A stretch of DNA of 64,000 nucleotides. It comes from an uncultured bacterium. GTDB taxonomy: Bacteria > Planctomycetota > DG-23 > CBDVDV01. How positions within the stretch are numbered: the stretch's first letter is position 1; each line of letters starts with the position of its first letter. The DNA lies in contig CBDVDV010000002.1 in assembly GCA_965372835.1 (NCBI GenBank), positions 179-64,178 of the forward strand. The letters run 5' to 3'. Positions 37,726 to 64,000 of the stretch are shown here, piece by piece. A program made the position numbers and the translations under genes. The notes beneath the pieces are model-generated. The model was not told the origin of the DNA. It searched no databases and saw nothing but the letters and a program-made list of their open reading frames with translations.

Positions 37726-38145
37726 TCAAGGTGGTGACTGAAGCCTCTCGCGCAACTCCCGGGCCCGGAAGATGAGCTTCTCCGGATCCGGCTTGGTCAG
37801 GGGCTGCAGGACGACCTCGTAGGGGTGGTTTTCCTCGATGGTCAGGGGCCAGAGCAGGTCAAAGAAGATGTCCAGAGGGAAGAAGGAGTGGAGGGGGGCC
37901 TCCACGACGACAGTCTGCTTGGAGGTTTGGTAACCGTCTTTTCGCAGTACCAGTTCCCGGTGGCCGTAGAAGTTGAACTCGAAGGTGCAGGGCGTTTCCC
38001 CCCGTTCGACGTCGTCCAGGTAGATCCGAGCTCCCGGCGGGTCGCTTCGGACGGTGATAGTGCGCTCCACACAGCCGGCCAGGCTCATGCCCACGGTGGC
38101 GAGCAATGCCAGAACTGTCGCTTTCTTTCTTGCCGAACTTTTCAT
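37726..38145 (-). CDS. PEGA-domain lipoprotein
   Basis: Lipobox LAGC; PEGA-like SDPPGARIYLDDVERGETP. Confidence 0.65.
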   Translation of the reverse strand: MKSSARKKATVLALLATVGMSLAGCVERTITVRSDPPGARIYLDDVERGETPCTFEFNFYGHRELVLRKDGYQTSKQTVVVEAPLHSFFPLDIFFDLLWPLTIEENHPYEVVLQPLTKPDPEKLIFRARELRERLQSPP

Positions 38146-38615
38146 AGTTCCACCAGTTCCACCTTGAGAGTCTCCAGGTCGACCAGGGCTACGGTCCCCT
38201 GCTCCGTGAGCCAGGCGCCTACCTCGCCGGGGTTGACCAGGACCGCTCGGCCTCGCCGGCCTACCTCGCTGCGATGGGTGTGTCCCACCACCACGAGATC
38301 GGCCTGCGCCAACAGCGGCTCGGTGAGGTCCCCTTCCCGGTGAGCGACCAATACCTTTCGGCCACCCGCCTCAAAAGTGTGGGGCGAGTCGTGCAGATCG
38401 GGAACGATTCTTCGCAGCCCTGCACGCTCGCCGTCGTTATTGCCGAAGACGGCCACGATGGGGCCGTCGAACTTCGCCCACGCCTTCGCCGCGAAGGGGG
38501 CGACGAAGTCGCCGGCATGAAAGAGCACTTCCGCGCCCCGCCGACCGATGACCTCGACCGCCCGCTCGATCATCGGCAGGTTGTCATGGGAATCGGCGGC
38601 GACCGCTGCGAGCAT
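38142..38615 (-). CDS. YfcE/MJ0936-family metallophosphoesterase
   Basis: AADSHDN..FHAGD..VFGNND..VVGHTH motifs. ATGA overlap with the PEGA gene. The alternative longer start is 38708. Confidence 0.75.
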   Translation of the reverse strand: MLAAVAADSHDNLPMIERAVEVIGRRGAEVLFHAGDFVAPFAAKAWAKFDGPIVAVFGNNDGERAGLRRIVPDLHDSPHTFEAGGRKVLVAHREGDLTEPLLAQADLVVVGHTHRSEVGRRGRAVLVNPGEVGAWLTEQGTVALVDLETLKVELVEL

Positions 38616-38744
38616 GGCGTCGGTGCACCCTTTCGGCTCTGGACGCCCGAATACCCCCCTCCCCTCGCGGACGCCCGAAATGGTACCGGCCGTTCGCCCT
38701 GCGGTCAACGGAAAAGCAAGGGAACCCCGGTGGTGGGGCTTGGT

Positions 38745-40046
38745 TCACCAGGCCACAGGGTCGACCCGCGCTCCCTCCGGCGGCGCCATGGGGCCCCACA
38801 GGAGGGGGTCGTTCGTCTCTGTCTGCCAGCGTTCAAGTTCGCCGCGGAGCCTCCGGTAGACCTCCTCGTATTCGGGATTGCCGATAAGGTTGTTCATCTC
38901 CAGAGGGTCGTTTTCGAGGTCGTAAAGTTCCTCTGGGGGACGAACTTGCTCGGCCTCAGGGCCAAGTGACTTGGCGCTGAGGCTTCGGGCGATGTCGGTA
39001 GGCAAGGGCAGCATCGGCCGCTCTTCATAACTGCGGATGTACTTGTGGCCTTCGGTGCGGATAGCCCGCATGGGGTCGTAGATGTCGTGATAGGTCTTCT
39101 CGGCGTAGATGCGGTCTCGCTCCTGGTAGTCGCCACCGGTTAGCATCGGCAGGAAACTTCGCCCCTCCACGTTTTCAGGTGTTGGAGGGCCCGCGGCCTC
39201 CAGGATCGTCGGGAGCATGTCGACGTTACTCACCAAGTTGCCGTATACCTTCCCGCCCTCGAAGCCCGCGGGCCAGCGCATAATGCAAGCGGTCCTGATG
39301 CCCGGGTCGTAGAGCGTCGATTTCGCCCGCGGGAAAGCAATGCCGTGGTCGGTGGTGAAGATGACCCAGGTGTTCTGGGCGAGTCCGGTCTCATCGAGCG
39401 CCTGGAGCAGTTTGCCAACGCAGGCGTCGGCGGCGTGGATGAGACCGTGGAAGTCGCCGATGTCTTCCCGCACTTCGAGGGTATCAGTAAGGTAGCCCGG
39501 CACGTGGACGTCGGCCGGGTCGTCAGGGGTGTAGACCTCGGACTTGAAGTCGCGATGCACTTCGCTCCAGCCGACCATGGCAAAAAAAGGTTCCTGCTTG
39601 CCCGACGACGCTCGCCCCTTGAGGAAGTCCACGACCAGCGGTGTCACCAAGTCGCAGCGGAACGGCCGCTGGCGCTCGCTTACCCATTGGTACCCCAAGC
39701 GGGCCGGGTCGCCGGTTTCGTGCTGGAAGCCGAAGAGCAGCGTCTCGTACCCCCCTCCGGCGAGCAGTTGAGGCAGACACCGTTCGTCCGGGTTGAGCGA
39801 GAAGCCCCGGTGAGTCAGGCCGTTGAGGCCATTGACGTGAGGATGTCGGCCGGTCATGATGCTTCCCCGGCTGGGGCTGCACAGCGGGGTGGTGCAGAAG
39901 TAGTTGTCGAACCGCACCCCTTCCTCAGCCAGTCCATCGACGTTGGTGGTGCGAAGCGACGGGTCTCCGTAACAGCCCAACTGCGTCCCCAGGTCGTGTA
40001 GGATGATGAACAGCACGTTCGGTCTCGGCACCGGTGCTCCGCCCAT
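38745..40046 (-). CDS. Cys-type sulfatase (arylsulfatase family), no signal peptide
   Basis: CSPSRGS formylglycine motif, HDLG, FTTDHG. AAGGAAGG RBS. Confidence 0.85.
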   Translation of the reverse strand: MGGAPVPRPNVLFIILHDLGTQLGCYGDPSLRTTNVDGLAEEGVRFDNYFCTTPLCSPSRGSIMTGRHPHVNGLNGLTHRGFSLNPDERCLPQLLAGGGYETLLFGFQHETGDPARLGYQWVSERQRPFRCDLVTPLVVDFLKGRASSGKQEPFFAMVGWSEVHRDFKSEVYTPDDPADVHVPGYLTDTLEVREDIGDFHGLIHAADACVGKLLQALDETGLAQNTWVIFTTDHGIAFPRAKSTLYDPGIRTACIMRWPAGFEGGKVYGNLVSNVDMLPTILEAAGPPTPENVEGRSFLPMLTGGDYQERDRIYAEKTYHDIYDPMRAIRTEGHKYIRSYEERPMLPLPTDIARSLSAKSLGPEAEQVRPPEELYDLENDPLEMNNLIGNPEYEEVYRRLRGELERWQTETNDPLLWGPMAPPEGARVDPVAW

Positions 40047-40232
40047 GGTTGCCTTCCTTTCGTCGGGTCAGTCCTCTGAGGTCGATTATCAAGACGCCCT
40101 CCTCCAGCCTGAAGCCGTCACTTGATTTATCAGCGCTTTTCCGATAGTCAAGCGCCAACTGTGTGCGTGCTGCTATGCGCGGGCTGCCGATTAGCAGACG
40201 AAGGTGTGCGAAGAACCTGAAAGGGGCCTGCC

Positions 40233-41384
40233 GTGGCTGAGGAGAAGCGACCGAGTTGTGAGTGGCAAGTGGAACGTACGGTCCGCGAGAGGTGCAAGGA
40301 GTCCTCCACGGAGACGATCCAACTGACCAGTGCGCCGGTCATCCACAGTCATATCTACCCCGAGGCCCCCATCTTTACCCCGGACAGCCGATTCTTCGTC
40401 TACGCGCGGTTCGGGGCGCTCGATCAGCCTCGCCAGTACTGGCTGTGCGAGGTGGGGAACTGGCGACTGTACCGACTGACCCACGAGTCGCCGGTGAACG
40501 GCCCTGTCATCGCTCCCGATGGGGACCACCTCTATTACGTGTGGGAGAAGCGACAAGCCGTTATTGTCCTGGTGAGGCTCAACCTGTGGAGCCTGCTTCG
40601 GGAAGAAGTGGCCGTTGCTGAGGACGTGACCCGTCCGTACCCCCTGGGGACCATGTCCCCCGACGGACGATACTACGCCACCCGCGTCTTTCTGCCCGAC
40701 GGCACAGCCGCTGTCCTTCGATTCGACATCGAGGAGCGCGAGTCCCAGGTGATTCACTCCCATCCTGAGATCTTCAATGCTCACATGCAGTGGGAGCCGG
40801 GCCAGGGAAACGACATTCTCATTCAGCACAACCGCGGTGGCTTCCGTGACCAGCGTGGTCGGCTCCTCCGACTGACCGGCCCGGAGGGCGCGACGCTGTA
40901 TCTCATCGACGCCGACGGTGGAAACGTGCGCGCGCTGCCCATCGGCACGCCCCATACCCCCCGCATCCAGGGCCATCAGTGTTGGTTCGGCCGGACTGGG
41001 AAGGTTATCGCCACCCTGGGCGGCGACTTCGAGCGCGATGGCAAGAAAGGCAATCTGGTTACCATCGCCGAAGGTGAGGGGGCGCCGACCGTACTTGCCG
41101 GCGGGCCCTGTTTTTGCCACGTGAGCGCTTCGCCCGACGGGCGCTTTTTCATCTGCGACGAAAACCCGTCGGCGGACGTCTACGTCGGTTCGGCCGAGAC
41201 GGGTGCGTACAGGCTGCTCTGCCGATCGGGAAGCGTCTTCGGCTCACCTCAGTACACTCACCCACATCCATTCTTGAGCCCGGACTGCCGATACGCGTTC
41301 TTCAACTCCGTCAAGACGGGCATACCTCAGATCTACGGCTGCACGATTCCTGAGGGTTTTCTGGAGTCGTTGGCGGCTGGTTGA
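40233..41384 (+). CDS. oligogalacturonate-lyase-like beta-propeller protein
   Basis: 383 aa, GTG start. N-terminal pattern resembles the Ogl family. Repeated SPDGR/APDGD blades. Confidence 0.5.
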   Translation: MAEEKRPSCEWQVERTVRERCKESSTETIQLTSAPVIHSHIYPEAPIFTPDSRFFVYARFGALDQPRQYWLCEVGNWRLYRLTHESPVNGPVIAPDGDHLYYVWEKRQAVIVLVRLNLWSLLREEVAVAEDVTRPYPLGTMSPDGRYYATRVFLPDGTAAVLRFDIEERESQVIHSHPEIFNAHMQWEPGQGNDILIQHNRGGFRDQRGRLLRLTGPEGATLYLIDADGGNVRALPIGTPHTPRIQGHQCWFGRTGKVIATLGGDFERDGKKGNLVTIAEGEGAPTVLAGGPCFCHVSASPDGRFFICDENPSADVYVGSAETGAYRLLCRSGSVFGSPQYTHPHPFLSPDCRYAFFNSVKTGIPQIYGCTIPEGFLESLAAG

Positions 41385-41410
41385 AGTACGCCGACAAAAG
41401 GGGAAAGCAC

Positions 41411-41504
41411 TGGCGGAGAGGCCGGGATTCGAACCCGGGGAAGAGGCTTATACCCCTTCAACGGTTTAGCAAACCGTCGCTTTCAACCACTCAGCCACCT
41501 CTCC
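41411..41504 (-). tRNA. tRNA-Ser (anticodon GCT)
   Basis: Reverse complement folds with acceptor GGAGAGG/CCTCTCC, anticodon loop TTGCTAA, long variable arm, T-loop TTCGAAT, CCA encoded. Confidence 0.8.
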
Positions 41505-41576
41505 GAGGGCCTGCGTGGTAGTCTCAGTATAACAGTCGCCATCTCTGCGGGCAAGGGCGCTTTGCCAGAAGTTCTC

Positions 41577-41668
41577 TGGCGGAGGGAGAGGGATTCGAAC
41601 CCCCGGTCCACCTTACGGCGGACAACGGTTTTCAAGACCGTCGCCTTCGTCCACTCGGCCATCCCTCC
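41577..41668 (-). tRNA. tRNA-Ser (anticodon TGA)
   Basis: Acceptor GGAGGGA/TCCCTCC, anticodon loop CTTGAAA, long variable arm, CCA encoded. Confidence 0.8.
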
Positions 41669-41952
41669 GGCCGGCGCCTGCGTCATCCCCCAAAGAGAGA
41701 CGCGCCTACACCGACAGAGGCATTCACCACGGTCTGCTTCTCCGGCCAGGGCCCGCGAGCAGACATTCTTCATATCGGCGAGCCCGCTTGCGCACCAAAT
41801 CAAAAGTATCACTCCTGGCTGCTACTGGCAACCCTTTTCCCCACCAAAGACAGCGCCGCTCAGCCTCATAATAGGAGGCTGCACGCACTCCCGTAAGGTC
41901 AGGCCCACACGCTAACCCCGTTGGCGCTCACCAGGCAGAAGTGAGTGTAAGG

Positions 41953-42969
41953 TCACCCAGTGGCCAGCGCCTTGACCACCTGCTCCAGGTTCTCACGCGG
42001 GGTGCCGGGGGAGATGTCGCAGCCACTGCTGTAGATCCAGGAGCCCTGTCCTTCGACCGCACGGCGAAGTTCGCGGGTGCTTCGGTCGATGACCTCCGGG
42101 GTGCCGAAGGCAAAGACGGCACTGGGGTCCAGGTTCCCGCGGAGCACGGCCCGCGCCCGGTTCGCTTTTAGGACCTGCGCGGGTGAGACCTGGTGGTCGA
42201 TGTCCACCAGGTTGACGCCCGTCGAAAGCACGTCCTCAAAGATGGGAAGGATGTTCCCGCAGATGTGGACTCCCACCGCCGACCAGCCCGCCTGGCAAAG
42301 TTCGCCGACGACCCGGCGATGGTGGTCGAGCACCAGGCTTCGGTAGGTCGCGGGCGGGATGAAGTTAGGTGAGCAGGTGGCTTCGCCCAGCACCACGGCA
42401 TGGGCGCCCGTCTCCCGGAAGGCGAGGCCACATTTGAGCGTGATCTCTCCGGTGAAATCGAGCACCTCAGCAAGCAGCCCCGGTGACGTCAGCGTGTCCA
42501 TGAGCACCATTTCCACCCCACGCAGTTGAGCGGCCATGAGGAAGGGACCCCGCAGCGTGACGACGACCAAAGCCTCCTTGCCGATTGTTTCCACCACCCG
42601 CTCCACAGCCCGGCGAAACATGGGGAACCGACCTCGTTGGAGAACATCGATGTCCCGCAGCCGATTCAGGTTCGCGGGGTCCGCGAGCAAGCGCTCCTGG
42701 AGCACCGGCGCGCCATCAGCAGGCTGATGGACACGGGCGCCCAGGGCTTCGGGCTCTGCGGTCACCCCAAGCGACAGTTGCACCCCGTCGTAGCCGAAGG
42801 TTCGGTAGCCCCGGATGATGGTCTCGGCCATGACCTGGGCGTCGGTGAAGAATCGGCTCAGGGGGACGCCGAACATCCGGGCCAACCCCGAGTGGACGAT
42901 GGGCACAATGGGTGTGCGGTCAGGCTGCCCACCGGCAAGGACAGCCTGCACCCGCTGGAGTCCTGTCAT
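41953..42969 (-). CDS. uroporphyrinogen decarboxylase (URO-D) family protein, paralog 1
   Basis: 338 aa. MTGLQRVQAVLAGGQPDRTP.. N-terminus and URO-D-like C-terminus. ATGA-coupled to the upstream enolase-family gene. Confidence 0.65.
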   Translation of the reverse strand: MTGLQRVQAVLAGGQPDRTPIVPIVHSGLARMFGVPLSRFFTDAQVMAETIIRGYRTFGYDGVQLSLGVTAEPEALGARVHQPADGAPVLQERLLADPANLNRLRDIDVLQRGRFPMFRRAVERVVETIGKEALVVVTLRGPFLMAAQLRGVEMVLMDTLTSPGLLAEVLDFTGEITLKCGLAFRETGAHAVVLGEATCSPNFIPPATYRSLVLDHHRRVVGELCQAGWSAVGVHICGNILPIFEDVLSTGVNLVDIDHQVSPAQVLKANRARAVLRGNLDPSAVFAFGTPEVIDRSTRELRRAVEGQGSWIYSSGCDISPGTPRENLEQVVKALATG

Positions 42970-44360: not shown

Positions 44361-44554
44361 TGCTTGTCCCTTTCTCGTTGGTCAGCTTTGAGCTTGCATT
44401 GACCGCGGGGTTCTCTTCTAACACTGGCAATGGTAGCGGAGCCGGCGAGGGGGTCAAGGCCGTTTGGCTTTCTGTTCCGGGTTGAACCTCGTCATCGTAC
44501 TGGTGTATAGACGTTCGTGCTTTGAGTTCACTCTCTGGGAACATAGGTGAGACC

Positions 44555-45817: not shown

Positions 45818-45848
45818 GGTCCGACCCCTTCTTCCCGGGGCGCTCCGG

Positions 45849-48488: not shown

Positions 48489-48508
48489 CAGGGCCCCACC
48501 AGGCTGAC

Positions 48509-49983: not shown

Positions 49984-51162
49984 TCACTTCAGTTCGAAGA
50001 AGGTACCGGCGATGTGCGTTCGGCCGCCCGGCCAGGGCAGGTCGTCTTCCTCGACCTGCCAGTAGTAGGCGGTGAAGAGGCGGCCGTCTTTGAGTTCCAC
50101 GGCCACGGGGTAGCCGCCGTCCTGGTCACTTACTGGTGGCGAATCGTCGCGCAGCACTATCTCCTCCGACCAGGTCTTCCCCTCGTCCTCACTCACGATG
50201 CAGCACATGCGCATGGGAGGTTGGCAGCGGACGATGTAGACGATCACGATCCGCCCGTCCCGAAGGAGGATGGAGTACGGAGACACCGACCAGCGGTCGA
50301 TCCGCCTGGGAGGAGCCCAGGTGTTTCCCAGGTCGTCTGAGTAGGTGACGGCCGTGTAGCGAACCGCAGCCGAGCCAGCCCACATCCCCAGGCTGCAGAA
50401 GAGCCGACCCGAGGGGAGCAGGAGCACCTTCGGGTAGGAGAAGGTTTCCAGGGTGTTGGGATCGAAGTGGATGGTGGAGACGTAGTGCCAGGTGACGCCC
50501 TGGTCGGTGGACATGTAGAGCTGGGGGGCGCGCTTCATACCCAGGTTGCCTCTGAGGATGGGCCCCAGACACCCGAGGAGCCTGCCGTCGCGCAGCACCA
50601 GGTAGAAGTTGTTGAAGACGGCCACGTTGTCGCCCATCTGCGGGCGGAAGATGACGGGGTGGTCCTCCCACGTCCGTCCCCGGTCGGCTGAGCGGAGCCC
50701 CCAGATGACCCGCTCGTGGTAAACCTTGCCGCCCCGAACGCTGGGAAGGCCCACCCACGCGCCACTCGTGTAAAGCACCGAGTCCGGATGCGACATGTCG
50801 ATGTCGGGGCGCTCGACCTCGTTGTTCCTCCGGATGGGTTTGCGGGTGAAGCGGTCCAGACCCAGCCATTCCCATTGGTCCCTTAGGTGTCGGCGGTTGT
50901 CGTAAAGGTCGAACTCCTCTCCCCAGGTAGATCCGCCGTTCAGGCTGCGCTGGAAGCGGTTGGTGGCCCGCCGCCAGATGCCATGCTCACCGTGGGCCTT
51001 GTCCTGGGCGTCGGTGTACTCGCTGTGGGAATGGATGTGCCCGAGCAGGATTTCATCGTCCTCAGGCCAGTACCAGATGCCCCCGAACCGGGGCCAATGG
51101 CACACGGTGTCCTTGGCGTAGCAGATGCGGATGTGCTCCAGGTTTTTCAGGCTTTCGTCCAT
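49984..51162 (-). CDS. BNR/Asp-box repeat glycosidase (sialidase-like), no signal peptide
   Basis: Four SxDxGxTW boxes (SADRGRTW, STDQGVTW, SDDLGNTW, SEDEGKTW). AGGAGG RBS. Confidence 0.7.
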   Translation of the reverse strand: MDESLKNLEHIRICYAKDTVCHWPRFGGIWYWPEDDEILLGHIHSHSEYTDAQDKAHGEHGIWRRATNRFQRSLNGGSTWGEEFDLYDNRRHLRDQWEWLGLDRFTRKPIRRNNEVERPDIDMSHPDSVLYTSGAWVGLPSVRGGKVYHERVIWGLRSADRGRTWEDHPVIFRPQMGDNVAVFNNFYLVLRDGRLLGCLGPILRGNLGMKRAPQLYMSTDQGVTWHYVSTIHFDPNTLETFSYPKVLLLPSGRLFCSLGMWAGSAAVRYTAVTYSDDLGNTWAPPRRIDRWSVSPYSILLRDGRIVIVYIVRCQPPMRMCCIVSEDEGKTWSEEIVLRDDSPPVSDQDGGYPVAVELKDGRLFTAYYWQVEEDDLPWPGGRTHIAGTFFELK

Positions 51163-51179: not shown

Positions 51180-52499
51180 CTACTCTTGGCCCCGCTGATA
51201 GCGTGCGTAATCGCCCATGGCTTGTTCGTAGTAGGGGGTGCGCAGCGGCCCCTCAGGGATTGGGTCGCCCACCTCTTCCATCCACTGCCACAGGCGGTTG
51301 GAGAGTTCTTCGACCAGATCGGCATATGACGTGTCTTGGCCCAGGTTCTCGTATTCGATGGAGTCCTCTTTTAGGTCGAACAACTGCACCACAGGACGGG
51401 TGCCGTCTCGACGCGGTCGTTCCACATGTTCGGCCACCGCCTGCGGGTCGACGTCGATGGGTTTGACGATGGTCCGACCGGGCTCGAAGTAGCGGATGAG
51501 TTTGTACCGGTCCGTGCGGATGCAGCGACAGGTGTTGTCGCGCAGAGGTTGGCTGACGTGCTCGGCGAAGACCGCATCGCGGATGGGCGCGTCTGATTCC
51601 CCCCGAAGGATCTTCGCCGCGCTGACTCCCTGGACGTTCTCGGGGATGGGTGCGCCAACGAGGTCGAGCAGTGTAGGCAGGAAGTCGACGTTACTCATCA
51701 GTTGGCGGTGAACCGTCCCACCGACGAGGCCACCGGCCGGCCAGCGCACGATGAGGGGGGTTTCGAGCCCCGGATCGAAGAGGCTCCACTTGGCGCCGCT
51801 GTAAGGGATGCCGTGGTCGGAGGTAAAGATGACCACGGTGTTCTCAGCCAGGCCGCTTTGCTCGAGGCCGCTCAGGATCTCACCGACGCCCGCGTCCATG
51901 AACTTGATGGCCCCCTGCAGACCCGCAAGGTCGTTTCGAATCACCTCGGTGTCAGCGAGGTAGGGCGGGACGTAGACGCCTTTTTCGCTGTCGGGCTGGA
52001 CGCCTCCGGTGTCGAACCGGCGGTGGACCTCGTGGAAGCCGACTTTGAGGAAGAAGGGAGGGTCGGTCGGCTTCTGATGCTGCAGGATTTCCACTGCCGA
52101 GGAGGCTTTCTCGGGGGCCAGTCGGCCGGCCTCGACCACATCGTGGTAACCGAGGGTGTGGGGGTCGTCCCTGGTGACGTGTTGGAAGCCGACGAGGGTC
52201 GTGTGATACCCGGCCTCTGAGAGGAGGCTGGCCAGGTGCCGTTCCCCTGGCTTAAGGGACCAGAGCCAGGGCGTATGGGTCAGCCCCATGAGCCCGTTGG
52301 TCTGGGGGTATCGGCCGGTGAGGATGCAGCCTCTGCTGGGGCTACATACGGCTGCTGCAGCGAAGTAGTTCTCGAAACGGGAGCCTTCTCGGGCGAGACG
52401 GTCGATGGAGCCGGAGTGCACGGTCTCGACGCCGTAGCAGCCCAGGTGCTGTCCCAGGTCGTGGCAGGTCATCATCAGGATGTTCGGCCGGGCGCTCAT
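51180..52499 (-). CDS. Cys-type sulfatase, paralog 2, no signal peptide
   Basis: CSPSRGC, CHDLG, TSDHG. Start M at 52499 by alignment with paralog 1; alternative GTG 52541. Confidence 0.8.
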   Translation of the reverse strand: MSARPNILMMTCHDLGQHLGCYGVETVHSGSIDRLAREGSRFENYFAAAAVCSPSRGCILTGRYPQTNGLMGLTHTPWLWSLKPGERHLASLLSEAGYHTTLVGFQHVTRDDPHTLGYHDVVEAGRLAPEKASSAVEILQHQKPTDPPFFLKVGFHEVHRRFDTGGVQPDSEKGVYVPPYLADTEVIRNDLAGLQGAIKFMDAGVGEILSGLEQSGLAENTVVIFTSDHGIPYSGAKWSLFDPGLETPLIVRWPAGGLVGGTVHRQLMSNVDFLPTLLDLVGAPIPENVQGVSAAKILRGESDAPIRDAVFAEHVSQPLRDNTCRCIRTDRYKLIRYFEPGRTIVKPIDVDPQAVAEHVERPRRDGTRPVVQLFDLKEDSIEYENLGQDTSYADLVEELSNRLWQWMEEVGDPIPEGPLRTPYYEQAMGDYARYQRGQE

Positions 52500-52603
52500 G
52501 GCACACTCACTCCTTTTCCGACCAAATTGCCGTCTTCTCACACATTCTCTTCCTCACCGGGCCACGCATGTTCCCACTGAGCGACGGCACCGTCAACAGG
52601 CCC

Positions 52604-53452
52604 TCAGCCCGGGTCAACCGGCTCCTGGCTTTCAGACGCACCGGCCGGCCCCGTCTCCGTTGCTTTCTCTCGGACCTGATCTTCCGTAGGGGCCTGGGCG
52701 TCAGCCGAAGGCTCCGGAGCCTCTTCGCCTGGGCGCAGTTGCAGCAGGATTTCGCCAAAAGGCTCCTCCTGGAAAGCCACAACCACCCGTCGGCGAATGA
52801 GTTCCAGCAGAGCCAAAAAGGTGCCCACCACGTGCATTCGGTCTCGCCGACCTTCAAAAAGCTCCCAGAAACGGACACTTGCTTCCCCGCCCATTCGTTC
52901 GACGAGCCGATGCATGAACTCACTCACCGGGATGTCGTCGTAGACGATGGTCTGCGGGAGCCGACCCATCGTCTCCTTCATCAGTTTGCGGAAGGCGGCG
53001 AATACGTCCCAGAGTTCCACCTCTTTCAGAGGCACCGCTGGCTCGCCCTCAGTGGGCGGTTCGGCCCGGGCCAGCCGCGGGAACTTCAACTGCTGCTCTG
53101 CGGCCCGGGCTTTGAGTTCCTCGGCGGCGTCGCGGAACTTCTTGTACTCCAGGAGTTCCCGCACCAGTTCCATCCGCGGGTCTTCCCCCTCGTCCTGCTC
53201 AAGCGGCGGGGGGTGAGGAAGGAGCATCCGCGACTTGATCTCCATCAGCGTGGCCGCCAGCACCACGAACTCACCGGCCAGGTTGACGTCCAGGGCCCTG
53301 ATGAGCTCCAGGTGCTCCAGGTACTGCTCGGTGATGCGGGCGATGGGGATGTCGTAGACTTCCACCTCCTCCTTGCGGATGAGGTAGAGCAAGAGATCCA
53401 TCGGCCCGTTGTAGACGTCGAGGTGTACCCGGTAGTCGTCCAAGTGCTTCAC
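52604..53452 (-). CDS. scpA: segregation and condensation protein A (kleisin)
   Basis: MDLLLYLIRKEEVEVYDIPIARITEQY N-terminal signature; GTG start; no scpB downstream. Confidence 0.8.
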   Translation of the reverse strand: MKHLDDYRVHLDVYNGPMDLLLYLIRKEEVEVYDIPIARITEQYLEHLELIRALDVNLAGEFVVLAATLMEIKSRMLLPHPPPLEQDEGEDPRMELVRELLEYKKFRDAAEELKARAAEQQLKFPRLARAEPPTEGEPAVPLKEVELWDVFAAFRKLMKETMGRLPQTIVYDDIPVSEFMHRLVERMGGEASVRFWELFEGRRDRMHVVGTFLALLELIRRRVVVAFQEEPFGEILLQLRPGEEAPEPSADAQAPTEDQVREKATETGPAGASESQEPVDPG

Positions 53453-53628: not shown

Positions 53629-54990
53629 TCAAGGCGTCAGGTTGGCTCCGTTGGAGGCGATGACCTCCTTGTACCAGTACGCCGAGTCTTTGAGCGTCCG
53701 CTTCTGGCTGTCGTAGTCAACATGGATAAGCCCAAAGCGCTGCCTGTAGCCCTCCGCCCACTCGAAGTTGTCCATGATGGACCAGTGGAAGTAGCCCCGC
53801 ACGTCCGCGCCATCTTCGATGGCCTTCTCCAACTGGAGCAGGTATCGGCGGGTGAAATCGATACGTTGCGGGTCGTGCACCTTGCCGTCCAGAGCCACCC
53901 AATCAAGGTTCGCTAACCCGTTCTCGGTGATGACGATGGGCAACTTGTATCGCTCATGGAAGAACCGAGGTCCCCAGCGCAGTGCCTCGGGCGTCACCGG
54001 CCAGCGGAAGGCGGTCATGGCGTACCCAGTGGGCAGGTCAACGGGCTCGGCGTTCCCGTCTGGGCCGGCCCGGACGGTCTGGCCCTGGTAGATATTGACA
54101 CCAAAGAAGTCCAACGGTTGGCACATCGTCTCCAGGTCGCCGTCACGAATCTCGGGCAGGTGTGCTGCGTAAGTCTTGAGGCCATCCTCCGGGTAGCGTC
54201 CGAGGATGACCGGGTCCATCCACCAGGTGTTGGTCCAGTAGCCCTTGGGCTCGGTAATCGAGAACATGCTTCGGCGGGCTGCTTCGATGTCCTTGGGGTC
54301 CTCTGTGGCTGGGACTCTGACAGTGCCCACCGGGGCGTAGCCCACCCTGGCTTCGCCCTTGGAATGGGTGCGGATGGCTTGCACGGCCTTGCCGTGCGCC
54401 AGCAAGACATGGCGTGTCATCCTGAGGATTTCTTTGAACGCCAACTTGTCACCGGGGGCGTGCACGCCGTCACGGTGCCCAAGGCCGACGAAGCACTGAG
54501 GCTCATTCAACGTCATCCAGTGGGTCACCCGGTCCGACAGTCTCTCCACGACGACCCCCGTGTACTCGGCAAACCAGTCGGGGCTATCCGGATTCAGCCA
54601 GCCCCCGCGGTAGTAGAGTTCCAGCGGGTAGTCCCAGTGAAAGAGGGTGAGGTACGGACTGATGTTGGCCGCGAGCAGTTCGTCGATGAGTTTGTCGTAG
54701 AAGTCCAGTCCTTTCGGGTTGACCGGACCGACGCCGGCCGGGATGACGCGAGGCCAGGAGATGGAAAGCCGGTAGCCCTTGAGCCCGATCTCTTTCCAGT
54801 GGGCAACGTCTTCTTTATAGCGATGATAGTGATCGCAGGCGACAGCACCCGACTGCCCGTTCCAGATGGTGCCTTGCTTTCGGCACATCATGTCCCAGAC
54901 CGACGGGCCCTTGCCATCCTCGTCGGCGGCGCCCTCGATCTGATAGGACGCCGTGGCCGAACCCCAGACGAAGCCTCCCGGAAATCCCAT
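53629..54990 (-). CDS. GH1 beta-glucosidase/beta-galactosidase
   Basis: TLNEP acid/base and ITENG nucleophile; 453 aa; no signal peptide. Confidence 0.9.
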   Translation of the reverse strand: MGFPGGFVWGSATASYQIEGAADEDGKGPSVWDMMCRKQGTIWNGQSGAVACDHYHRYKEDVAHWKEIGLKGYRLSISWPRVIPAGVGPVNPKGLDFYDKLIDELLAANISPYLTLFHWDYPLELYYRGGWLNPDSPDWFAEYTGVVVERLSDRVTHWMTLNEPQCFVGLGHRDGVHAPGDKLAFKEILRMTRHVLLAHGKAVQAIRTHSKGEARVGYAPVGTVRVPATEDPKDIEAARRSMFSITEPKGYWTNTWWMDPVILGRYPEDGLKTYAAHLPEIRDGDLETMCQPLDFFGVNIYQGQTVRAGPDGNAEPVDLPTGYAMTAFRWPVTPEALRWGPRFFHERYKLPIVITENGLANLDWVALDGKVHDPQRIDFTRRYLLQLEKAIEDGADVRGYFHWSIMDNFEWAEGYRQRFGLIHVDYDSQKRTLKDSAYWYKEVIASNGANLTP

Positions 54991-55079
54991 CGCACGTCCC
55001 CCTTCGCCACAGCGACGACAGGTCCCACCCCTCTGCTGCGACGCCCCGTCGCTGCAGGCCTTACCGATCTCGACAGCCC

Positions 55080-56525
<1,446 letters not shown>

Positions 56526-56546
56526 CTACCCGTGAGGCTTGCGCGC

Positions 56547-56575
56547 GCACGGGCACTCCTTTGGGGTGCCCGTGC
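56547..56575 (-). terminator. perfect 10-bp GC-rich hairpin (GCACGGGCAC/GTGCCCGTGC, 9-nt loop) between the Cys-rich ORF and GH1
   Basis: Inverted repeat read directly; no U-tract. Confidence 0.3.
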
Positions 56576-56607
56576 CACTCCCCGCCCAGGACAGCGACAT
56601 CGAGCAC

Positions 56608-56820
56608 CTATTTCAGCCTGGCGCTCCAGACCTCGATGAACTTCTGGAAGGAGCGGTCGTAGGTCTTCTCCACCTCGGGCGGGAAGCAGCAGCCGGGCAG
56701 CTGCTGCGTCGCCAGGTGGTAACTGATGCATTCGCAGCAGTTTCCCCGCCGGTCACAAGTGGTGTAGGTGCAGGCGCACCTGTCCACGTTCTTCTGCAAG
56801 TTCTCACACTGAACGGTCAT
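56608..56820 (-). CDS. small Cys-rich protein (8 Cys + His), putative metal-binding, unknown function
   Basis: MTVQCENLQKNVDRCACTYTTCDRRGNCCECISYHLATQQLPGCCF.. AGGAGG RBS 4 nt before the ATG. The track ORF 5' extension lacks an RBS. Confidence 0.55.
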   Translation of the reverse strand: MTVQCENLQKNVDRCACTYTTCDRRGNCCECISYHLATQQLPGCCFPPEVEKTYDRSFQKFIEVWSARLK

Positions 56821-56833
56821 CTTTCCTCCTTCC

Positions 56834-58948: not shown

Positions 58949-58978
58949 CTCAGGTGCCCTTTCCCCTGCCGGGAACTA

Positions 58979-59968
58979 TCAGAACCCCAGGACCTGGTGG
59001 ACCAGGTCCATGGTCTCGTGCGCTTCTTCGTGGGCCCGTTGGCTCCCGGCCTCGATGATGGCTTTTAGTTCGTCCCGGTTGGCGAGCAGTTCCTGGCGAC
59101 GCTGGCGGATGGGTGTGAGCACCTCGATAAGCAGTTCGGCCAGCCGGGCCTTGCATTCGGTGCAGCCCCACTCGGCGTTCTTGCATCGGCGGGCCACTGA
59201 GTCGGCCTCTTCCTTGGTGCTGAAGACTTCGTAGTAACTGTGGACGTTGCAGTAATCGGGTCGGCCGGGGTCGGTTCGGCGGATGCGCTGGGGGTCGGTG
59301 ATCATAGACATGGTCTTCTCGCGGATGGTGTCGGGAGCATCGGCCAGGGCGATGAAGTTGCCGTAGGACTTGCTCATCTTTCGGCGGTCCAGGCCCAGGA
59401 GCCGACTCGTGGGGGCCAGCAGGTCCTGGGGGTCGGGGAACACCTGGCCGAAGAGGTGATTGAATCGTCGGCCGATCTCCCGGGTGATTTCCAGGTGGGG
59501 GAGTTGGTCGTCGCCCACGGGCACGGTGTCGGCCCGGTAGAGGAGGATGTCCGAGGCCATGAGTACGGGATAGCCTAAGAAGGCGTAGTTGGTGAGGTCG
59601 TGGTCGCGCATCTCCTGCTGCTGCTCCTTGTAGGTGGGGCAGCGCTCCAGCCAGGGGATGGGGGTGATGCAGGAGAAGACCATGTGCAGTTCCACGTGCT
59701 CGGGGACGTGGCTCTGGATGAAGATGGTGGAGCGCTCCGGGTCCAGGCCCACGGCTAGCCAGTCAGCCAGCACCTCCCAGGTGTACTGGGCAATGTTCTC
59801 AGGGGTAGCGAACTCGCTCATCAGGGCGTGCCAGTCGACGATGCAGTAGAAGCATTCGTACTCGTCCTGGAGTTTGATCCAGTTCCTGAGGGCCCCGGCC
59901 AGGTTCCCCAGATGCATCGGCCCCGTGGGCCTCATCCCCGAGAGAATCCGTCCCTTCTTCTCGGCCAC
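58979..59968 (-). CDS. trpS: tryptophan--tRNA ligase
   Basis: TGPMHLGN (HIGH) and KMSKS motifs, 329 aa. Confidence 0.93.
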   Translation of the reverse strand: MAEKKGRILSGMRPTGPMHLGNLAGALRNWIKLQDEYECFYCIVDWHALMSEFATPENIAQYTWEVLADWLAVGLDPERSTIFIQSHVPEHVELHMVFSCITPIPWLERCPTYKEQQQEMRDHDLTNYAFLGYPVLMASDILLYRADTVPVGDDQLPHLEITREIGRRFNHLFGQVFPDPQDLLAPTSRLLGLDRRKMSKSYGNFIALADAPDTIREKTMSMITDPQRIRRTDPGRPDYCNVHSYYEVFSTKEEADSVARRCKNAEWGCTECKARLAELLIEVLTPIRQRRQELLANRDELKAIIEAGSQRAHEEAHETMDLVHQVLGF

Positions 59969-60055
59969 CCGTCTTCTCCTCTACTATGGTGTCCTGTGCC
60001 TCGCTGCACGCTCGGCCTCGTCTGAGGCAATTCCCTAACCCAGGAAAAACGCAGG

Positions 60056-60682
60056 CTAATATCCCACCAGCGCCCTGGTCGAATAAGTAATCACCGCCCA
60101 GAGGACGTCGAACAGCGGGGTAAACATAATCAGAATCATGAGCAGGATGAAGCCAGTCTCGCGAAGGCTCTGGTAGGCTGCAGCGGCCTGCGGTGGCAAC
60201 AGTGCGGCGAGCACGTGTGACCCGTCAAGGGGTGGCACCGGCAGCAGATTGAAGAAGGCCAGCAGCAGATTAATCATCACCCCGTACTCCAGCGCTCGGG
60301 TTCCCACCGAGGTCGTCGCGAACACCTGCGTAGCCAGGAGGGTGCGGATCAGAACTGCCAGAACAACGGCAATGAGCAAGTTGGTGGCCACCCCCGCCAA
60401 AGACACCAGGATGTCGTCCCGCTTGGGGTTCCGGAAGTTCAACGGATTGACGGGAACCGGCTTGGCCCCACCGAAGATGAAGCCCATGAAGTACCACATG
60501 ACAAGAGGCAGAATGACTGTGCGAATCGGGTCGATGTGTGGCAGCGGGTTGAAGGTCAGCCGACCGGAGAGCTTGGCCGTCGGATCCCCGCAGAGATAGG
60601 CCACATAGCCGTGGGCCACCTCGTGGGCCATCACGGAGATCACAAAAATAGCCAAGACGGCTACGACCACAAAGGTCGACAC
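60056..60682 (-). CDS. site-2 protease family (peptidase M50) membrane metalloprotease
   Basis: HEVAH and NLLPVPPLDG motifs, multi-TM, 208 aa. Confidence 0.8.
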   Translation of the reverse strand: MSTFVVVAVLAIFVISVMAHEVAHGYVAYLCGDPTAKLSGRLTFNPLPHIDPIRTVILPLVMWYFMGFIFGGAKPVPVNPLNFRNPKRDDILVSLAGVATNLLIAVVLAVLIRTLLATQVFATTSVGTRALEYGVMINLLLAFFNLLPVPPLDGSHVLAALLPPQAAAAYQSLRETGFILLMILIMFTPLFDVLWAVITYSTRALVGY

Positions 60683-60800
60683 TGGTTCCCTCTCGCGTGC
60701 TCTTCCCGCAGCTCCCCGGTTCCACCAGTATCACGCCGAGGGCAAGGCACTGTCAAGCCCCAAGGCCTACGGGCAAGACGGGAACACCGGCAAAATCGCC

Positions 60801-60828
60801 TTGCCCCTGCGCCAGACCACCGTAGAAT
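60801..60828 (+). promoter_or_regulatory. candidate promoter TTGCCC-16-TAGAAT for the lipoprotein gene
   Basis: Hexamers ~50 nt upstream of ATG 60880. Confidence 0.3.
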
Positions 60829-60879
60829 GACCAGGCGGTCGCGCTGGCACGACAGAACAGCAGGTGCAGGAGCACCAGG

Positions 60880-61302
60880 ATGAACGAGTTCTCAGGACTG
60901 GCGGCACGGGTCTTAGCGTTGGCACTGCTCGCCCTGGCGGCGGGTTGTCAGCAGCAGGCGACCACGCTGTCGGGCTGGGTGAGCGAAGGCAGCGAGAGCA
61001 CCATTGTGCTCCTGGAGAGACCTGAGGTGGAGTTGGCTTCCGCCCCCGTCGCGGGCGCGACCGTCGGCGTCCACAAGCGGGAGCGCGGCAAGGACCGGGC
61101 CATCTGTGACGTTCAGACTGACGGGACCGGCCACTTCTCCGCCAGCATCCTCCGCCAACCGGGCGGGCGGGCCCACTGGCAACTCACCGTGGCGAAAGCC
61201 GGCTACGAATCCGCCTCCACCGGTTGGCGCCGACTCCCCGCCGGGAACGCTCTCTACTGGCGTGCCTTTCTGGCCCCCGAAACAAAAGGCAAGGGTCAGT
61301 AA
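60880..61302 (+). CDS. hypothetical lipoprotein (carboxypeptidase-regulatory-like beta-sandwich?)
   Basis: Lipobox LAAGC, 140 aa. Confidence 0.45.
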   Translation: MNEFSGLAARVLALALLALAAGCQQQATTLSGWVSEGSESTIVLLERPEVELASAPVAGATVGVHKRERGKDRAICDVQTDGTGHFSASILRQPGGRAHWQLTVAKAGYESASTGWRRLPAGNALYWRAFLAPETKGKGQ

Positions 61303-61639
61303 GGCGAAAAGCCGGGGAGTGGACACCGGCTCAAAGGCCAATGCCCACTCCCCTCATTCCCCCTGACCCGTAGGGAACGTCGGGTCGCCTCGACCACCTC
61401 CGTGGCCCCAGCGACCGCACAGGAGGGTACGACCGAAGCCGAAGACCTGTCTCTCCGACTCCACTACATTATATCAGCCCCGCAACCCCTCCTGCAGTTG
61501 GCTCAGCCCCGATTTCGTATCTCCTGGCGCCGGCTGAGGTTAAGAACTCAGATTCGTTCACTTTGCCACGCCCAAGGTGGGGCACCCAGGTTTGACCGTT
61601 GGCCGAGGAGACAGGAGCAATGGCGGGAATCTCAACGGT

Positions 61640-62839
61640 TCAGCGGTATTCGTTGATGGCCTCGTACATGGCGATGATGTTTTCCGGCGGCGTCCCAGGC
61701 TGAATGTTGTGAATGTGGCTGAAGACGAAGCCGCCTCCCGGAGCCAGGTCGTCAGTCCGTCGGCGGACTTCGTCCCGCACCTCGCCCGGCGTGCCGAACG
61801 GCAGCACCCGCTGGGTATCACAGCCCCCACCCCAGAAGGAAATGTCGCCGCCGAACTCCCTCTTCAGTTCAGCCGTGTCCATCCCCGAGGCGGTGACCTG
61901 GATGGGGTTGAGCACGTCGATGCCGACGTCGATAAAATCCGGTACGAGGCCCCGCACCGCACCATCGGTATGCAGGCAGACGTGGGCGTTCGACCTCTCC
62001 CGTATGGCTCGACACAGCACTTCCTGGCAAGGTTTGACGAACCTGCGATACATGCTGGGGCTGAGTTGCGAGGTGCGTTGGGTGCCCAGGTCATCGGCCA
62101 TGAGCACCATCTGCACGTTGTCCCCCACGGCCTCGGCAAACCGACCGAAGCGCTCGATGTGCATCTGCGTGATGCGCCAGAGAAGCTCCTCGGCCAGTCT
62201 GGGTGCGATCAGCAGGTCGGTCATGAACTTCTCGTCGCCGAAGAGCCACTGCCCGCCGGTAAAGATATGCCCACCGATATACAGAACCAGGAAGCGGTCG
62301 CTCTCACGGAAGAGCGACGCAGCCCGTTGCCCCAGGGCCTCAAAATCCGTGGGTGCATAGGAGCAGGCATCGATGGCGTCGATGTCGGCTTGGTGTTTGT
62401 CGAGGTCCGCGACCTCACGCACGTCGGCAAGGGGGAAGCGGACCTGGCGGAAGCAAGGAGCACCCTCGGCGAGTCGGGCCGTGACCTCGCCTTGGGCGTT
62501 GCGGCTCACCCAGGAGCCGTCGGGTTGTTCCTCGGGCACACACTCGACCGGCACAAGTTTCGGCACACCGTCCGGTATGGTGCTCTCGACCCAGCCACTG
62601 GGCTGGAACTCGACGGGCTCGGCGTCCGTCCGCGCCAACTCCAGCACAGGGCCCTCTATGCGTGGGAGCAGTTGGTCGGGCTGAGACAACCGTACCGGGC
62701 CGGTGAGACCCAGGCGCTCCCGGAGCGGGCGGTAGGCGCCGTAGAGTATGCTGGTCACGTCCGTGCCGCCAAGGTCCACGGGAATCTGGTCAGGCTCCTG
62801 GTGACTCAGCGCCGCGAGGATTCGTTCGCGTGAGGTCAT
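61640..62839 (-). CDS. URO-D family protein, paralog 3
   Basis: MTSRERILAALSHQEPDQIPVDLGG.. and FVFSHIHNIQPGTPPENIIAMYEA C-terminus. Confidence 0.7.
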   Translation of the reverse strand: MTSRERILAALSHQEPDQIPVDLGGTDVTSILYGAYRPLRERLGLTGPVRLSQPDQLLPRIEGPVLELARTDAEPVEFQPSGWVESTIPDGVPKLVPVECVPEEQPDGSWVSRNAQGEVTARLAEGAPCFRQVRFPLADVREVADLDKHQADIDAIDACSYAPTDFEALGQRAASLFRESDRFLVLYIGGHIFTGGQWLFGDEKFMTDLLIAPRLAEELLWRITQMHIERFGRFAEAVGDNVQMVLMADDLGTQRTSQLSPSMYRRFVKPCQEVLCRAIRERSNAHVCLHTDGAVRGLVPDFIDVGIDVLNPIQVTASGMDTAELKREFGGDISFWGGGCDTQRVLPFGTPGEVRDEVRRRTDDLAPGGGFVFSHIHNIQPGTPPENIIAMYEAINEYR

Positions 62840-62992
62840 GTCCTGTGCTCCCTGCTTGTCAGCGTCGCCGGTACTGTCCCGGCACAGATACTAACAGCCA
62901 GAGGGGCTCATTCACAACCAGCCAGTTCCGACCGGCGAGTGCGGCCATCCGGGACAGGACCCGCCGGCCGGCGGGTGCCGCCCGCGGACGCC

Positions 62993-63021
62993 TTGACCTG
63001 CCCCGGAGGTGTTGCTACCAT
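62993..63021 (+). promoter_or_regulatory. candidate promoter TTGACC-17-TACCAT for URO-D paralog 4
   Basis: Hexamers in the divergent region shared with paralog 3. Confidence 0.3.
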
Positions 63022-63069
63022 TCGGCCACAAGACGTTGCTAACGACCCAGACCGGCGAGGAGCAGCGAG

Positions 63070-64000
63070 ATGATGTCCAGCAGCGAGGTCGTCAGACGGG
63101 CCGTTCGGTTCGAGGGGCCCGAGAGGCTGCCCCGCAGCCTGCCCGAGACATACGGCTCGGATTTCTCCTGGGTTGCCATGAGCCCCTCGCCCGATTCGCG
63201 CCCAGGTAGCGGCGTGGACGAATGGGGAGCAATCTGGGAGAACATCGGCATCTCCAACATGGGCCAGGTGAAAGAGTTCCCCATCAAGACCTGGAGGGAC
63301 TTCGACAGGCTGCGGGTCCCCGACATCAAGGAACCGAGACGATGGGAGACACTGAGAGGGGCACGTGACCGCGCCGGCGACAAGTTCCTCCTTGGCGGAG
63401 GTATATCCCTCTACGAACGCGTGCACTTCATCCGCGGGCTGGAGAACACCTGGGCGGACATCTATCAGGCACCGGAGCGCCTGAACGAGTTGGTCGACAT
63501 TCTCGTCGACATGAACCTGTACGCCATCGAGAAGTATGCCGAGGAGGACGTTGACGGACTGTTCTGGTGTGACGACTGGGGGCTGCAGAATCGGCTGATG
63601 ATCAGCGCGGATTCCTGGCGCGAGATCTGGAAGCCGCGGTACGCCCGCGTCTATCAGGCGGCCCACGACGCGGGGCTGCTGACGTTCCTCCACAGCTGCG
63701 GCCACATTGTGGAGATCCTCGACGACCTCATCGAGGCCGGGCTCGACGTGATTCAATTGGACCAGCAGGAAAACATGGGGCTGGAGGTGCTGGGACGGTT
63801 CGCTAAGCGGATCACCTTCTGGTGTCCCGTGGACATCCAGAACACGATGGCTCGCGGAAACCCCGACGAGATCCGCCGCTACGTCCGCAAGATGGTCACG
63901 ACTCTCGCCAAGCCCGAAGGCGGCTTCATCTGCGGTTATTACGGCGACCCCGTGGGCGCCGGCCACACCCAGGAAGCTATCGACGTCATGTGCCAGGCGT
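63070..64000 (+). CDS. URO-D family protein, paralog 4 (3' end outside window)
   Basis: Own translation: frame-1 ORF open from ATG 63070 to the window end (MMSSSEVVRRAVRFEGPERLP...GGFICGYYGDPVGAGHTQEAIDVM). Absent from the track because it has no stop. The antisense 62908..63966 ORF is an artefact. Confidence 0.6.
   Translation, partial: MMSSSEVVRRAVRFEGPERLPRSLPETYGSDFSWVAMSPSPDSRPGSGVDEWGAIWENIGISNMGQVKEFPIKTWRDFDRLRVPDIKEPRRWETLRGARDRAGDKFLLGGGISLYERVHFIRGLENTWADIYQAPERLNELVDILVDMNLYAIEKYAEEDVDGLFWCDDWGLQNRLMISADSWREIWKPRYARVYQAAHDAGLLTFLHSCGHIVEILDDLIEAGLDVIQLDQQENMGLEVLGRFAKRITFWCPVDIQNTMARGNPDEIRRYVRKMVTTLAKPEGGFICGYYGDPVGAGHTQEAIDVMCQA

Follow-up and report, generated by a model that had tools for sequence, protein, structure and literature searches.

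Four genes of the uroporphyrinogen decarboxylase (UroD) superfamily, here called U1 to U4, lie within the last 26 kb of a 64,000-nucleotide stretch (the window) of contig CBDVDV010000002.1, which comes from an uncultured bacterium of the Planctomycetota. None of them encodes a heme enzyme, and instead of the HemE active site they carry metal-type triads at the position where the methyltransferase MtaA binds zinc. The reading we tentatively favour, with somewhat less than even confidence, is that U1-U4 act in corrinoid-dependent methyl transfer, namely anaerobic O-demethylation of a sugar or glycoside, as two divergent pairs of one Asp-type and one Cys-type paralog. Regardless of this reading, a misleading annotation is corrected, and the triads provide sequence markers by which the UroD superfamily can be sorted.

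The four genes had been assigned to this family in the initial annotation of the window, and all of them exceed the PF01208 gathering threshold of 23.9 bits (Table 1). Their pairwise identity is 20-30%, indicating ancient paralogs and no recent duplicates. A typical genome has one hemE, and even when a 5-Mb genome with 30 paralogs is assumed, we estimate that only ~0.16 paralogs would fall in a 26-kb stretch by chance. The U4 gene runs off the end of the window and probably lacks ~14 codons there, because its 79%-identical ortholog in L088 has 323 aa. An insert of ~57 residues in U2 (208-264) is low-complexity, rich in Pro, Arg, Glu and Ser, lineage-specific and predicted to be disordered (predicted local distance difference test, pLDDT, <50), and most members of the U2 family are ~360 aa long and do without it. 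The U3 family has at least 5786 homologs (E<=1e-5) and the U2 family 798 clusters at 50% identity (E<=1e-30). Homologs are distributed in Planctomycetota, Chloroflexota, Verrucomicrobiota, Armatimonadota, Hydrogenedentota, Sumerlaeia, Lentisphaerae, Aerophobetes, Spirochaetota, Clostridia and Bathyarchaeia, and their records bear generic names, such as "uroporphyrinogen decarboxylase (family protein)", "methyltransferase", "MtaA/CmuA family methyltransferase" or "hypothetical protein". No signal peptide was read from the sequences of U1-U4. These proteins, predicted to be cytoplasmic, belong to four separate UroD-superfamily clades, each of them large and uncharacterised.

UroD-fold proteins are decarboxylases or methyltransferases, as the initial annotation correctly stated, and it went on to propose an undescribed decarboxylation of uronates. 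That U1-U4 decarboxylate uronates, 4-deoxy-uronates or keto-deoxy sugar acids as HemE-like enzymes without a cofactor now appears highly improbable. Such enzymes would suit the co-located Bh0493-type uronate isomerase, weakly PL22-like propeller and enolase-superfamily gene, and the UroD fold is present. However, against the HemE equivalog model TIGR01464, with a cut-off of 302.95 bits, U1 reached 53.4, U2 21.1 and U3 18.9 bits, and U4 gave no match. The active-site residues were compared on an alignment of ~30 members per family with MtaA (from its PDB alignment) and an E. coli HemE sequence. The columns of the HemE RQAGR arginines, the catalytic Asp (FSDIL) and the Tyr are occupied by hydrophobic residues, Gly, Gln or gaps in all four families. 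In the Asp column, which lies in a gappy region, the U4 of the window alone has Asp, and 14 of 15 U4-family members have Gly. The HemE identity of U1-U4 was thus rejected, since the TIGR01464 scores are far under the cut-off and the paralogs lack the Arg, Asp and Tyr residues of HemE. The conserved metal-type triads at the methyltransferase zinc site would also be unnecessary for HemE-type catalysis, and corrinoid proteins, not uronate genes, recur at the ~169 homolog loci described below. No heme-pathway gene was seen among the open reading frames (ORFs) annotated with hidden Markov models (HMMs) between 32.8 and 64 kb.

The comparison with MtaA gave a different picture for each paralog. Scores against the MtaA/CmuA model TIGR01463 were 153.5 bits for U1, 44.4 for U3, 35.8 for U4 and 16.7 for U2, all below its cut-off of 235.4. 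U1 aligns over its full length with Methanosarcina mazei MtaA (PDB 4ay7; E 4.5e-30, 26.8% identity over 343 columns) and keeps the HICGN and GC..P.TP.EN motifs, and U2-U4 give partial alignments at 21-25% identity. The AlphaFold2 models of U3 (pLDDT 92.5) and U2 (pLDDT 85.3) were searched with Foldseek, with template modelling (TM) scores to MtaA and UroD of 0.58-0.70 for U3 and ~0.6 for U2. The best PDB matches of both models are MtaA 4ay7 and UroD structures (probability 1.00, target-normalised TM 0.53-0.70), and MtaA and HemE are matched about equally, at 12-19% identity. According to these models, U2 and U3 are predicted to possess the complete (beta/alpha)8 barrel of UroD and MtaA. HemE has PF01208 and the fold in common with the paralogs (Foldseek TM 0.5-0.7), and differs by the low identity (12-19%) and the missing heme context here. 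The PDB sequence and fold searches returned MtaA, HemE and MetE only, and no newer functional homolog.

The UroD-type TIM barrel is shared with MtaA, MtbA, MtsA and the MtaA-like proteins (Mlps) described by Kountz and Balskus (PMC10418091), and U1 qualifies as an MtaA-like protein in their sense. U1 keeps the H-x-C...C pattern of this group and U4 keeps H-x-C. However, U1 stays under the TIGR01463 cut-off, and U2 and U3 have Asp and His in place of the cysteines. Unlike the Mlp systems, the window has no corrinoid protein, activase or tandem Mlp cluster, and the host is a Planctomycete and not a methanogen.

The zinc ligands of MtaA are His-x-Cys and a distal Cys. At these positions, the U1 family has H-C-C as in MtaA (31 of 31 members), while the U2 family has D-D-H, found in 31 of 31 members and in ~90 locus copies with identities as low as 32%. 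Of 142 library representatives of the U2 family, 133 have it too. The U3 triad is H-D-H in the clade of the window and H-C-H in most orthologs of other phyla. In U4, H-C is followed by G, H or N, and this variable third position is an uncertain ligand; LHSCGH of U4 aligns with LHICGN of MtaA, so that the H-S-C part of the motif is kept. Metal ligands would be expected to behave in this way, with Cys and Asp replacing each other at one position and D-D-H strictly invariant.

The paralogs are transcribed divergently, U2 against the enolase-like gene and U1 across 44361-44554, and U3 against U4 across 62840-63069. Each pair combines one Asp-type with one Cys-type protein, i.e., DDH (U2) with HCC (U1) and HDH (U3) with HC- (U4). 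The U3/U4 pair is kept in a 77%-identical relative (L088), where a 28%-identical, 841-aa homolog of the 879-aa secreted protein of the window is encoded 45 bp downstream of the U4 ortholog (227-2752, minus strand), which suggests that a UroD paralog and a large secreted unclassified protein form a recurrent module. Three copies of a promoter-like element, TTGACC-N16/17-TACCAT, are present in the window, compared with 0.01 expected from shuffling, and the sites before the enolase-U1 unit and U4 have the extended 9-mers GCCTTGACC and GCTACCATT in common. This shared element hints that the enolase-U1 unit and U4 might be similarly expressed. A shared operator was also sought in the two divergent intergenic regions, and only the promoter-like element was found in common.

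The genomic company of homologs was collected at ~169 loci overall, including 80 genome loci from a scan with U3, whose neighbours were clustered and their labels confirmed by Pfam, and 80 metagenome loci from a scan with U2. The mixture of Asp-type and Cys-type proteins recurs at loci with two or more paralogs, in 24 of 30 in the U3 scan and 8 of 15 in the U2 scan. The commonest neighbours of U3-type genes in the 80 genome loci include a ribose-type sugar ATP-binding cassette (ABC) ATPase (28), its permease (25), a Peripla_BP_4 binding protein (18), LacI (15), FGGY kinase (11), and a glycyl-radical enzyme with its activase (10-11), as well as Fucose_iso_C-like and AraA isomerases. A corrinoid protein with B12-binding and B12-binding_2 domains, confirmed by Pfam, adjoins U3-like genes in 14 of these loci. 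In the typical Chloroflexi layout, LacI, binding protein, ABC and permease genes precede three UroD genes (HCH, HDH and HCH), followed either by a corrinoid protein, activase and glycyl-radical enzyme or by an isomerase and kinase. The cluster from LacI to the glycyl-radical enzyme is shared by ten loci of Chloroflexia/Anaerolineae (L046, L048-L051, L055, L058, L061, L072 and L073), with the PFL-like enzyme missing in L072, and it extends into AraA, alcohol dehydrogenase and FGGY kinase in L055 and L058.

For U2-type genes, the corrinoid protein is the commonest neighbour, and in 16 of the 80 metagenome loci it directly precedes the DDH gene, often together with an Opp-type ABC transporter. 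Two loci (L135 and L141) have the order glycoside hydrolase family 1 (GH1) beta-glycosidase, corrinoid protein, U2-like DDH gene, a 437-aa protein of unknown function and the RACo activase, and the Opp-type transporter lies upstream of this cassette in L135. In a third, related locus (L140), a corrinoid protein is followed by two U2-like genes, an unknown gene, a second corrinoid protein and RACo. Judged by gene content, these arrangements are canonical, complete-looking corrinoid methyltransferase cassettes, tied to a glycosidase in L135 and L141. With an HMM of the corrinoid proteins, such proteins were found in 32 of the ~169 loci, and five loci, representing three lineages, have RACo (L076, L078, L135, L140 and L141).

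The same cassettes bear on the alternative that GH1 frees the aglycone of plant or algal methoxylated aromatic glycosides and the UroD paralogs demethylate it, so that the substrate would be no methylated sugar, which we consider quite unlikely. In L135 and L141, a GH1 gene immediately precedes those of the corrinoid protein and the U2-like enzyme, the window itself has two GH1 genes, and the homolog-bearing Bathyarchaeia and Anaerolineae are proposed degraders of methoxylated aromatics. Moreover, the characterised UroD-type O-demethylases all act on methoxylated aromatics (PMC13222342, PMC8630106). However, the GH1 genes of the window are 8-17 kb away from the paralogs, and genes for the catabolism of aromatic rings were not seen. 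The most frequent neighbours are monosaccharide-type transporters, LacI, fucose/arabinose isomerases and sugar kinases, and a sugar substrate fits them better than an aromatic one.

Closer U2 orthologs, at 51-79% identity, have other company, consisting of a ~960-aa HZS-alpha-like propeller, DegT, AP_endonuc_2, GFO_IDH_MocA and DUF1559, of GH123/CBM9, BNR_2, an SSF transporter and AraC, or of SBP_bac_1, FucI and PfkB. U1-type genes are accompanied by GH2, by GH29 with LacI, GFO_IDH, AP_endonuc_2 and aldo-keto reductase, by PL14 with a 3-keto-disaccharide hydrolase, or by DUF4838. A GH140 apiosidase-like protein (PF13204 with DUF5060) is encoded directly downstream of a U2-like gene in L121, L122 and L139, and in L165 it is on the upstream side, with the corrinoid protein in between. 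The substrate of GH140, rhamnogalacturonan-II, also carries 2-O-methyl sugars.

The glycan-related neighbours of the window show little recurrence in this survey. Among the ~169 loci, a sulfatase adjoins homologs in just two (L015 and L018), a BNR protein in one (L068) and the 879-aa protein likewise in one (L088), and the enolase-like gene, uronate isomerase, GH1 and propeller of the window never recur there. Therefore, the link to acidic or sulfated glycans drawn in the initial annotation is unsupported, for the uronate genes as for the sulfatases, and the support goes no further than a general link with the uptake and catabolism of carbohydrates.

Another alternative is that U1-U4 are corrinoid methyltransferases unrelated to glycans, acting on methyl-sulfur or methyl-selenium compounds, in methionine-type thiol methylation or on small methylated compounds, with an incidental position among glycan genes; we regard this as unlikely. 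U1 fits the MtaA-like definition, with >25% identity to a coenzyme M methyltransferase, and MtaA-like proteins have been proposed to act in methyl-sulfur or methyl-selenide metabolism (PMC10418091). The region of the window is a patchwork with housekeeping genes, a 57%-identical U3 homolog adjoins S-adenosylmethionine synthetase and S-adenosylhomocysteine hydrolase with no glycan gene nearby, and the Opp-type ABC transporters that accompany B12-linked U2-like genes are possibly peptide carriers. However, the company of LacI, sugar-binding protein, ABC transporter, isomerase, kinase and glycoside hydrolase recurs across several phyla and in the U1, U2 and U3 families, and the type 1 mlp architecture of several Mlps with corrinoid protein and activase is absent from the window.

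In the favoured reading of anaerobic sugar or glycoside O-demethylation, the Asp-type U2 (DDH) and U3 (HDH) would hold a metal at the MtaA zinc position and form the substrate:corrinoid methyltransferase side. This metal might bind and polarise the ether oxygen of an O-methylated sugar or glycoside-derived compound, from which the methyl group would be taken by a Co(I) corrinoid protein. The Cys-type U1 (HCC, MtaA-like) and U4 (HC-x) would then hand the methyl group from the methyl-corrinoid to a thiol or other acceptor, probably through a zinc-thiolate as in MtaA. We infer the split between methyl-removing and methyl-delivering roles, the carbohydrate substrate, and a corrinoid protein that, like the activase, would be encoded outside the window. 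The UroD superfamily is known to hold both the demethylating MtvB, OdmB, VdmB, MtoB, CdmB and CmuA and the MtaA-type methyl-delivering enzymes, besides many uncharacterised clades (PMC13222342, PMC10418091).

Several results weigh against this reading. No B12-binding protein was found in the 64-kb window by six-frame HMM search (E<=1e-3) or tblastn, no RACo by tblastn and no cobalamin riboswitch by Rfam scan, and the HMM search (E<=1e-3) found no B12-binding protein at the close-ortholog loci L084-L094 either. The initial annotation had likewise noted that the paralogs lie far from any heme or corrinoid context. Its alternative of O-demethylation gains real support from U2 and U3 homologs directly beside corrinoid proteins and RACo, inside sugar-uptake and catabolic clusters. 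The B12-linked U2-like genes form a distant branch (33-37% identity), and the closer U2 orthologs have no B12 neighbour. Most of the B12-linked U3-like loci represent a single conserved cluster of Chloroflexi, which makes the counts phylogenetically redundant. The Planctomycete orthologs show little conservation of the surrounding gene order, and thus it could be incidental that the paralogs of the window lie near glycan genes. No zinc site made of an Asp/His triad is known from corrinoid methyltransferases, and zinc is not required at all by CdmB and the Moorella O-demethylase (PMC13222342). No UroD-family enzyme is known to act on a methylated sugar. Finally, the residue comparison with the E. 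coli HemE reference should be treated with care.

The lack of corrinoid partners in the window and near close orthologs would also be explained if the B12-unlinked clades, including U2 and U3, were corrinoid-independent metalloenzymes for sugar isomerisation, epimerisation, dehydration or hydrolysis that share only their ancestry with the methyltransferases. We judge this alternative somewhat unlikely. Sugar isomerases and TIM barrels of the amidohydrolase type typically have His/Asp metal sites, and AP_endonuc_2, GFO_IDH_MocA, Amidohydro_2, FucI and FGGY, which occur among the neighbours, are sugar-interconversion enzymes. However, the same invariant DDH is found in the copies directly downstream of a corrinoid protein and beside RACo, which argues for one shared chemistry throughout the family. 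In addition, the known corrinoid-independent activities of the superfamily are limited to HemE and MetE-type methyl transfer (PMC10418091).

UroD-superfamily corrinoid methyltransferases as such are already known. The OdmB, VdmB, MtvB, MtoB, CdmB and CmuA systems belong to the same superfamily and follow the same system logic, and U2 and U3 homologs likewise lie beside a corrinoid protein and RACo (PMC13222342). Compared by description only, these O-demethylases and dehalogenases differ in that their substrates are methoxylated aromatics or halomethanes, whereas the company here is of sugar genes. We know of no description of DDH or H(D/C)H triads for any of these enzymes. What appears new in the searched literature is the DDH and H-D/C-H clades, their pairing with Cys-type paralogs and their embedding in sugar-utilisation loci; the search returned nothing relevant on UroD-family proteins in polysaccharide loci or on corrinoid-dependent sugar demethylation.

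Methyl ethers block glycoside hydrolases and sugar catabolism, and how anaerobic glycan degraders handle them is the question that the O-demethylation reading would address. The only described enzymatic removal of a sugar methyl ether in polysaccharide catabolism is by the P450 carbohydrate demethylase acting on 6-O-methyl-D-galactose (PMC6292453). Its oxygen-dependent oxidation differs from the proposed methyl abstraction by Co(I), the folds are unrelated, and the link is functional and hypothetical, with the UroD system as a hypothetical anaerobic counterpart of the P450 route. It is conceivable, though doubtful, that the Asp/His-triad clades and their Cys-type paralogs are the missing anaerobic carbohydrate O-demethylases, of which the window would show two pairs. 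On this doubtful proposal, methyl ethers would be stripped from sugars such as 2-O-methyl-fucose, 2-O-methyl-xylose, O-methyl-rhamnose, 4-O-methyl-glucuronate or 6-O-methyl-galactose before isomerase/kinase catabolism. The system might then be widespread in Planctomycetota, Chloroflexota, Verrucomicrobiota, Armatimonadota, Hydrogenedentota, Bathyarchaeia and others. If O-demethylation is true, sugars and glycosides would be a new substrate class for a known corrinoid enzyme system, thousands of "uroporphyrinogen decarboxylase family protein" entries would gain a function, and polysaccharide degradation would be tied to the flow of one-carbon (methyl) groups and to B12 demand in anoxic sediments.

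Table 1. Positions of the UroD paralogs, their neighbours and the promoter-like elements in the window.
Feature	Position	Strand	Basis and remarks
Promoter-like TTGACC-N16/17-TACCAT	38680-38708	-	Start of metallophosphoesterase ORF, downstream of sulfatase 1
Sulfatase 1, Cys-type, CSPSR motif and SGSH_C domain	38745..40046	-	PF00884 132.8 bits; motif read from sequence
PD40-type beta-propeller, distantly Ogl (PL22)-like	40233..41384	+	PF14583 34.7 bits; PDB 3pe7 E 7.8e-8 over 60 residues, 3c5m 1.4e-6
Two tRNA-Ser genes, anticodons gct and tga	41411-41504, 41577-41668	-	Between propeller gene and U1, directly downstream of U1
U1, full-length UroD-superfamily protein of MtaA-like (Mlp) type, 338 aa	41953..42969	-	PF01208 200.7 bits
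Enolase-superfamily-like protein, 464 aa	42966..44360	-	MR_MLE_C 52.8 bits, residues 232-453; C-terminal barrel alone recognisable
Promoter-like TTGACC-N16-TACCAT	44430..44457	-	Faces enolase-like/U1 unit
U2, UroD-fold protein, 420 aa	44555..45817	+	PF01208 50.8 bits, C-terminal third only
Secreted protein, family unassigned, 879 aa	45849..48488	-	Signal peptide, NGGFE-type N-terminus; convergent with U2
Bh0493-type uronate isomerase, amidohydrolase superfamily, 445 aa	48509..49846	-	PDB 2pnk/2q08/3hk5 E ~1e-170
BNR/sialidase-like beta-propeller	49984..51162	-	BNR_2 59.9 bits; no obvious signal peptide
Sulfatase, Cys-type, CSPSR motif and SGSH_C domain	51180..52541	-	PF00884 138.1 bits, PF16347 86 bits; motif read from sequence
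ScpA, housekeeping	52604..53452	-	PF02616 133.2 bits; inside co-directional gene run
Two tandem GH1 glycosidases	53629-54990, 55080-56423	-	PF00232 487 and 464.8 bits
Tryptophanyl-tRNA synthetase, housekeeping	58979..59968	-	PF00579 230.7 bits
U3, UroD-fold protein, 399 aa, divergent from U4	61640..62839	-	PF01208 78.5 bits
Promoter-like TTGACC-N17-TACCAT	62993..63021	+	Faces U4
U4, UroD-superfamily protein, 310 codons inside window	63070->64000	+	PF01208 67.8 bits; cut by window end

The gene content listed in the initial annotation was largely reproduced by the HMM annotation, which covers 32.8-64 kb (genes upstream of 32.8 kb were identified from ORF sizes alone). The two Cys-type sulfatases, the two GH1 enzymes and the BNR protein were recovered with PF00884 and the CSPSR motif, PF00232 and BNR_2, respectively. 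The enolase-superfamily gene was matched by its C-terminal domain only, and otherwise gave weak MenC and N-acylamino-acid racemase matches. It lies upstream of U1 in one transcription unit, in which the U1 start and the enolase-like stop overlap by 4 bp. This pairing is kept only in near-identical contigs, and not in the more distant U1-family loci at 55-62% identity.

The predicted UxaC-like isomerase is real and belongs to the Bh0493 type, with residues 33-442 aligned to 6-415 of 2pnk/2q08. Pfam-A and NCBIfam return nothing for it at E<=0.01, and Bh0493-type isomerases seem to be missed by both HMM libraries. A propeller is indeed present at the place of the proposed Ogl-like protein, although its likeness to Ogl is weak. 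The secreted protein described as fronted by a carbohydrate-binding module is probably the 879-aa ORF, whose signal peptide was found; the module was not, as this protein has no Pfam, NCBIfam or PDB sequence match. Both sulfatases and the BNR protein appear to be without signal peptides, which suggests that they act in the cytoplasm, on oligosaccharides that have been imported. A sulfatase-maturating enzyme was not seen in the window.

The designation of the region as accessory did not hold. The scpA, trpS, tRNA-Ser and M50 protease genes are interleaved, rpoA is adjacent and the shift in GC content is small (~64% across the window, with the region only ~2-3 points below the upstream half), so the region is no accessory island. 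A co-directional run on the minus strand from 60682 to 45849 encodes the M50 protease, tryptophanyl-tRNA synthetase, a CARDB lipoprotein, the GH1 enzymes, ScpA, a sulfatase, the BNR protein, the isomerase and the 879-aa protein. Scattered gene organisation is typical of Planctomycetes, and the region looks like an example of it and not like a dedicated locus. A further promoter-like site, TTGCCC-N17-TATACT with an upstream TG, was noted at 41554-41526, near the tRNA-Ser genes.

Directly upstream of the region, rpoA and a ribosomal-protein cluster end at 36.6 kb. Five more tRNA genes were found further upstream, four at 4280-4850 and one at 6352-6425 on the plus strand, with an EF-Tu-sized ORF (4902-6101) among them and rpoB- and rpoC-sized ORFs downstream (9788-17691), and this stretch from 4280 to 17691 is core chromosomal context.

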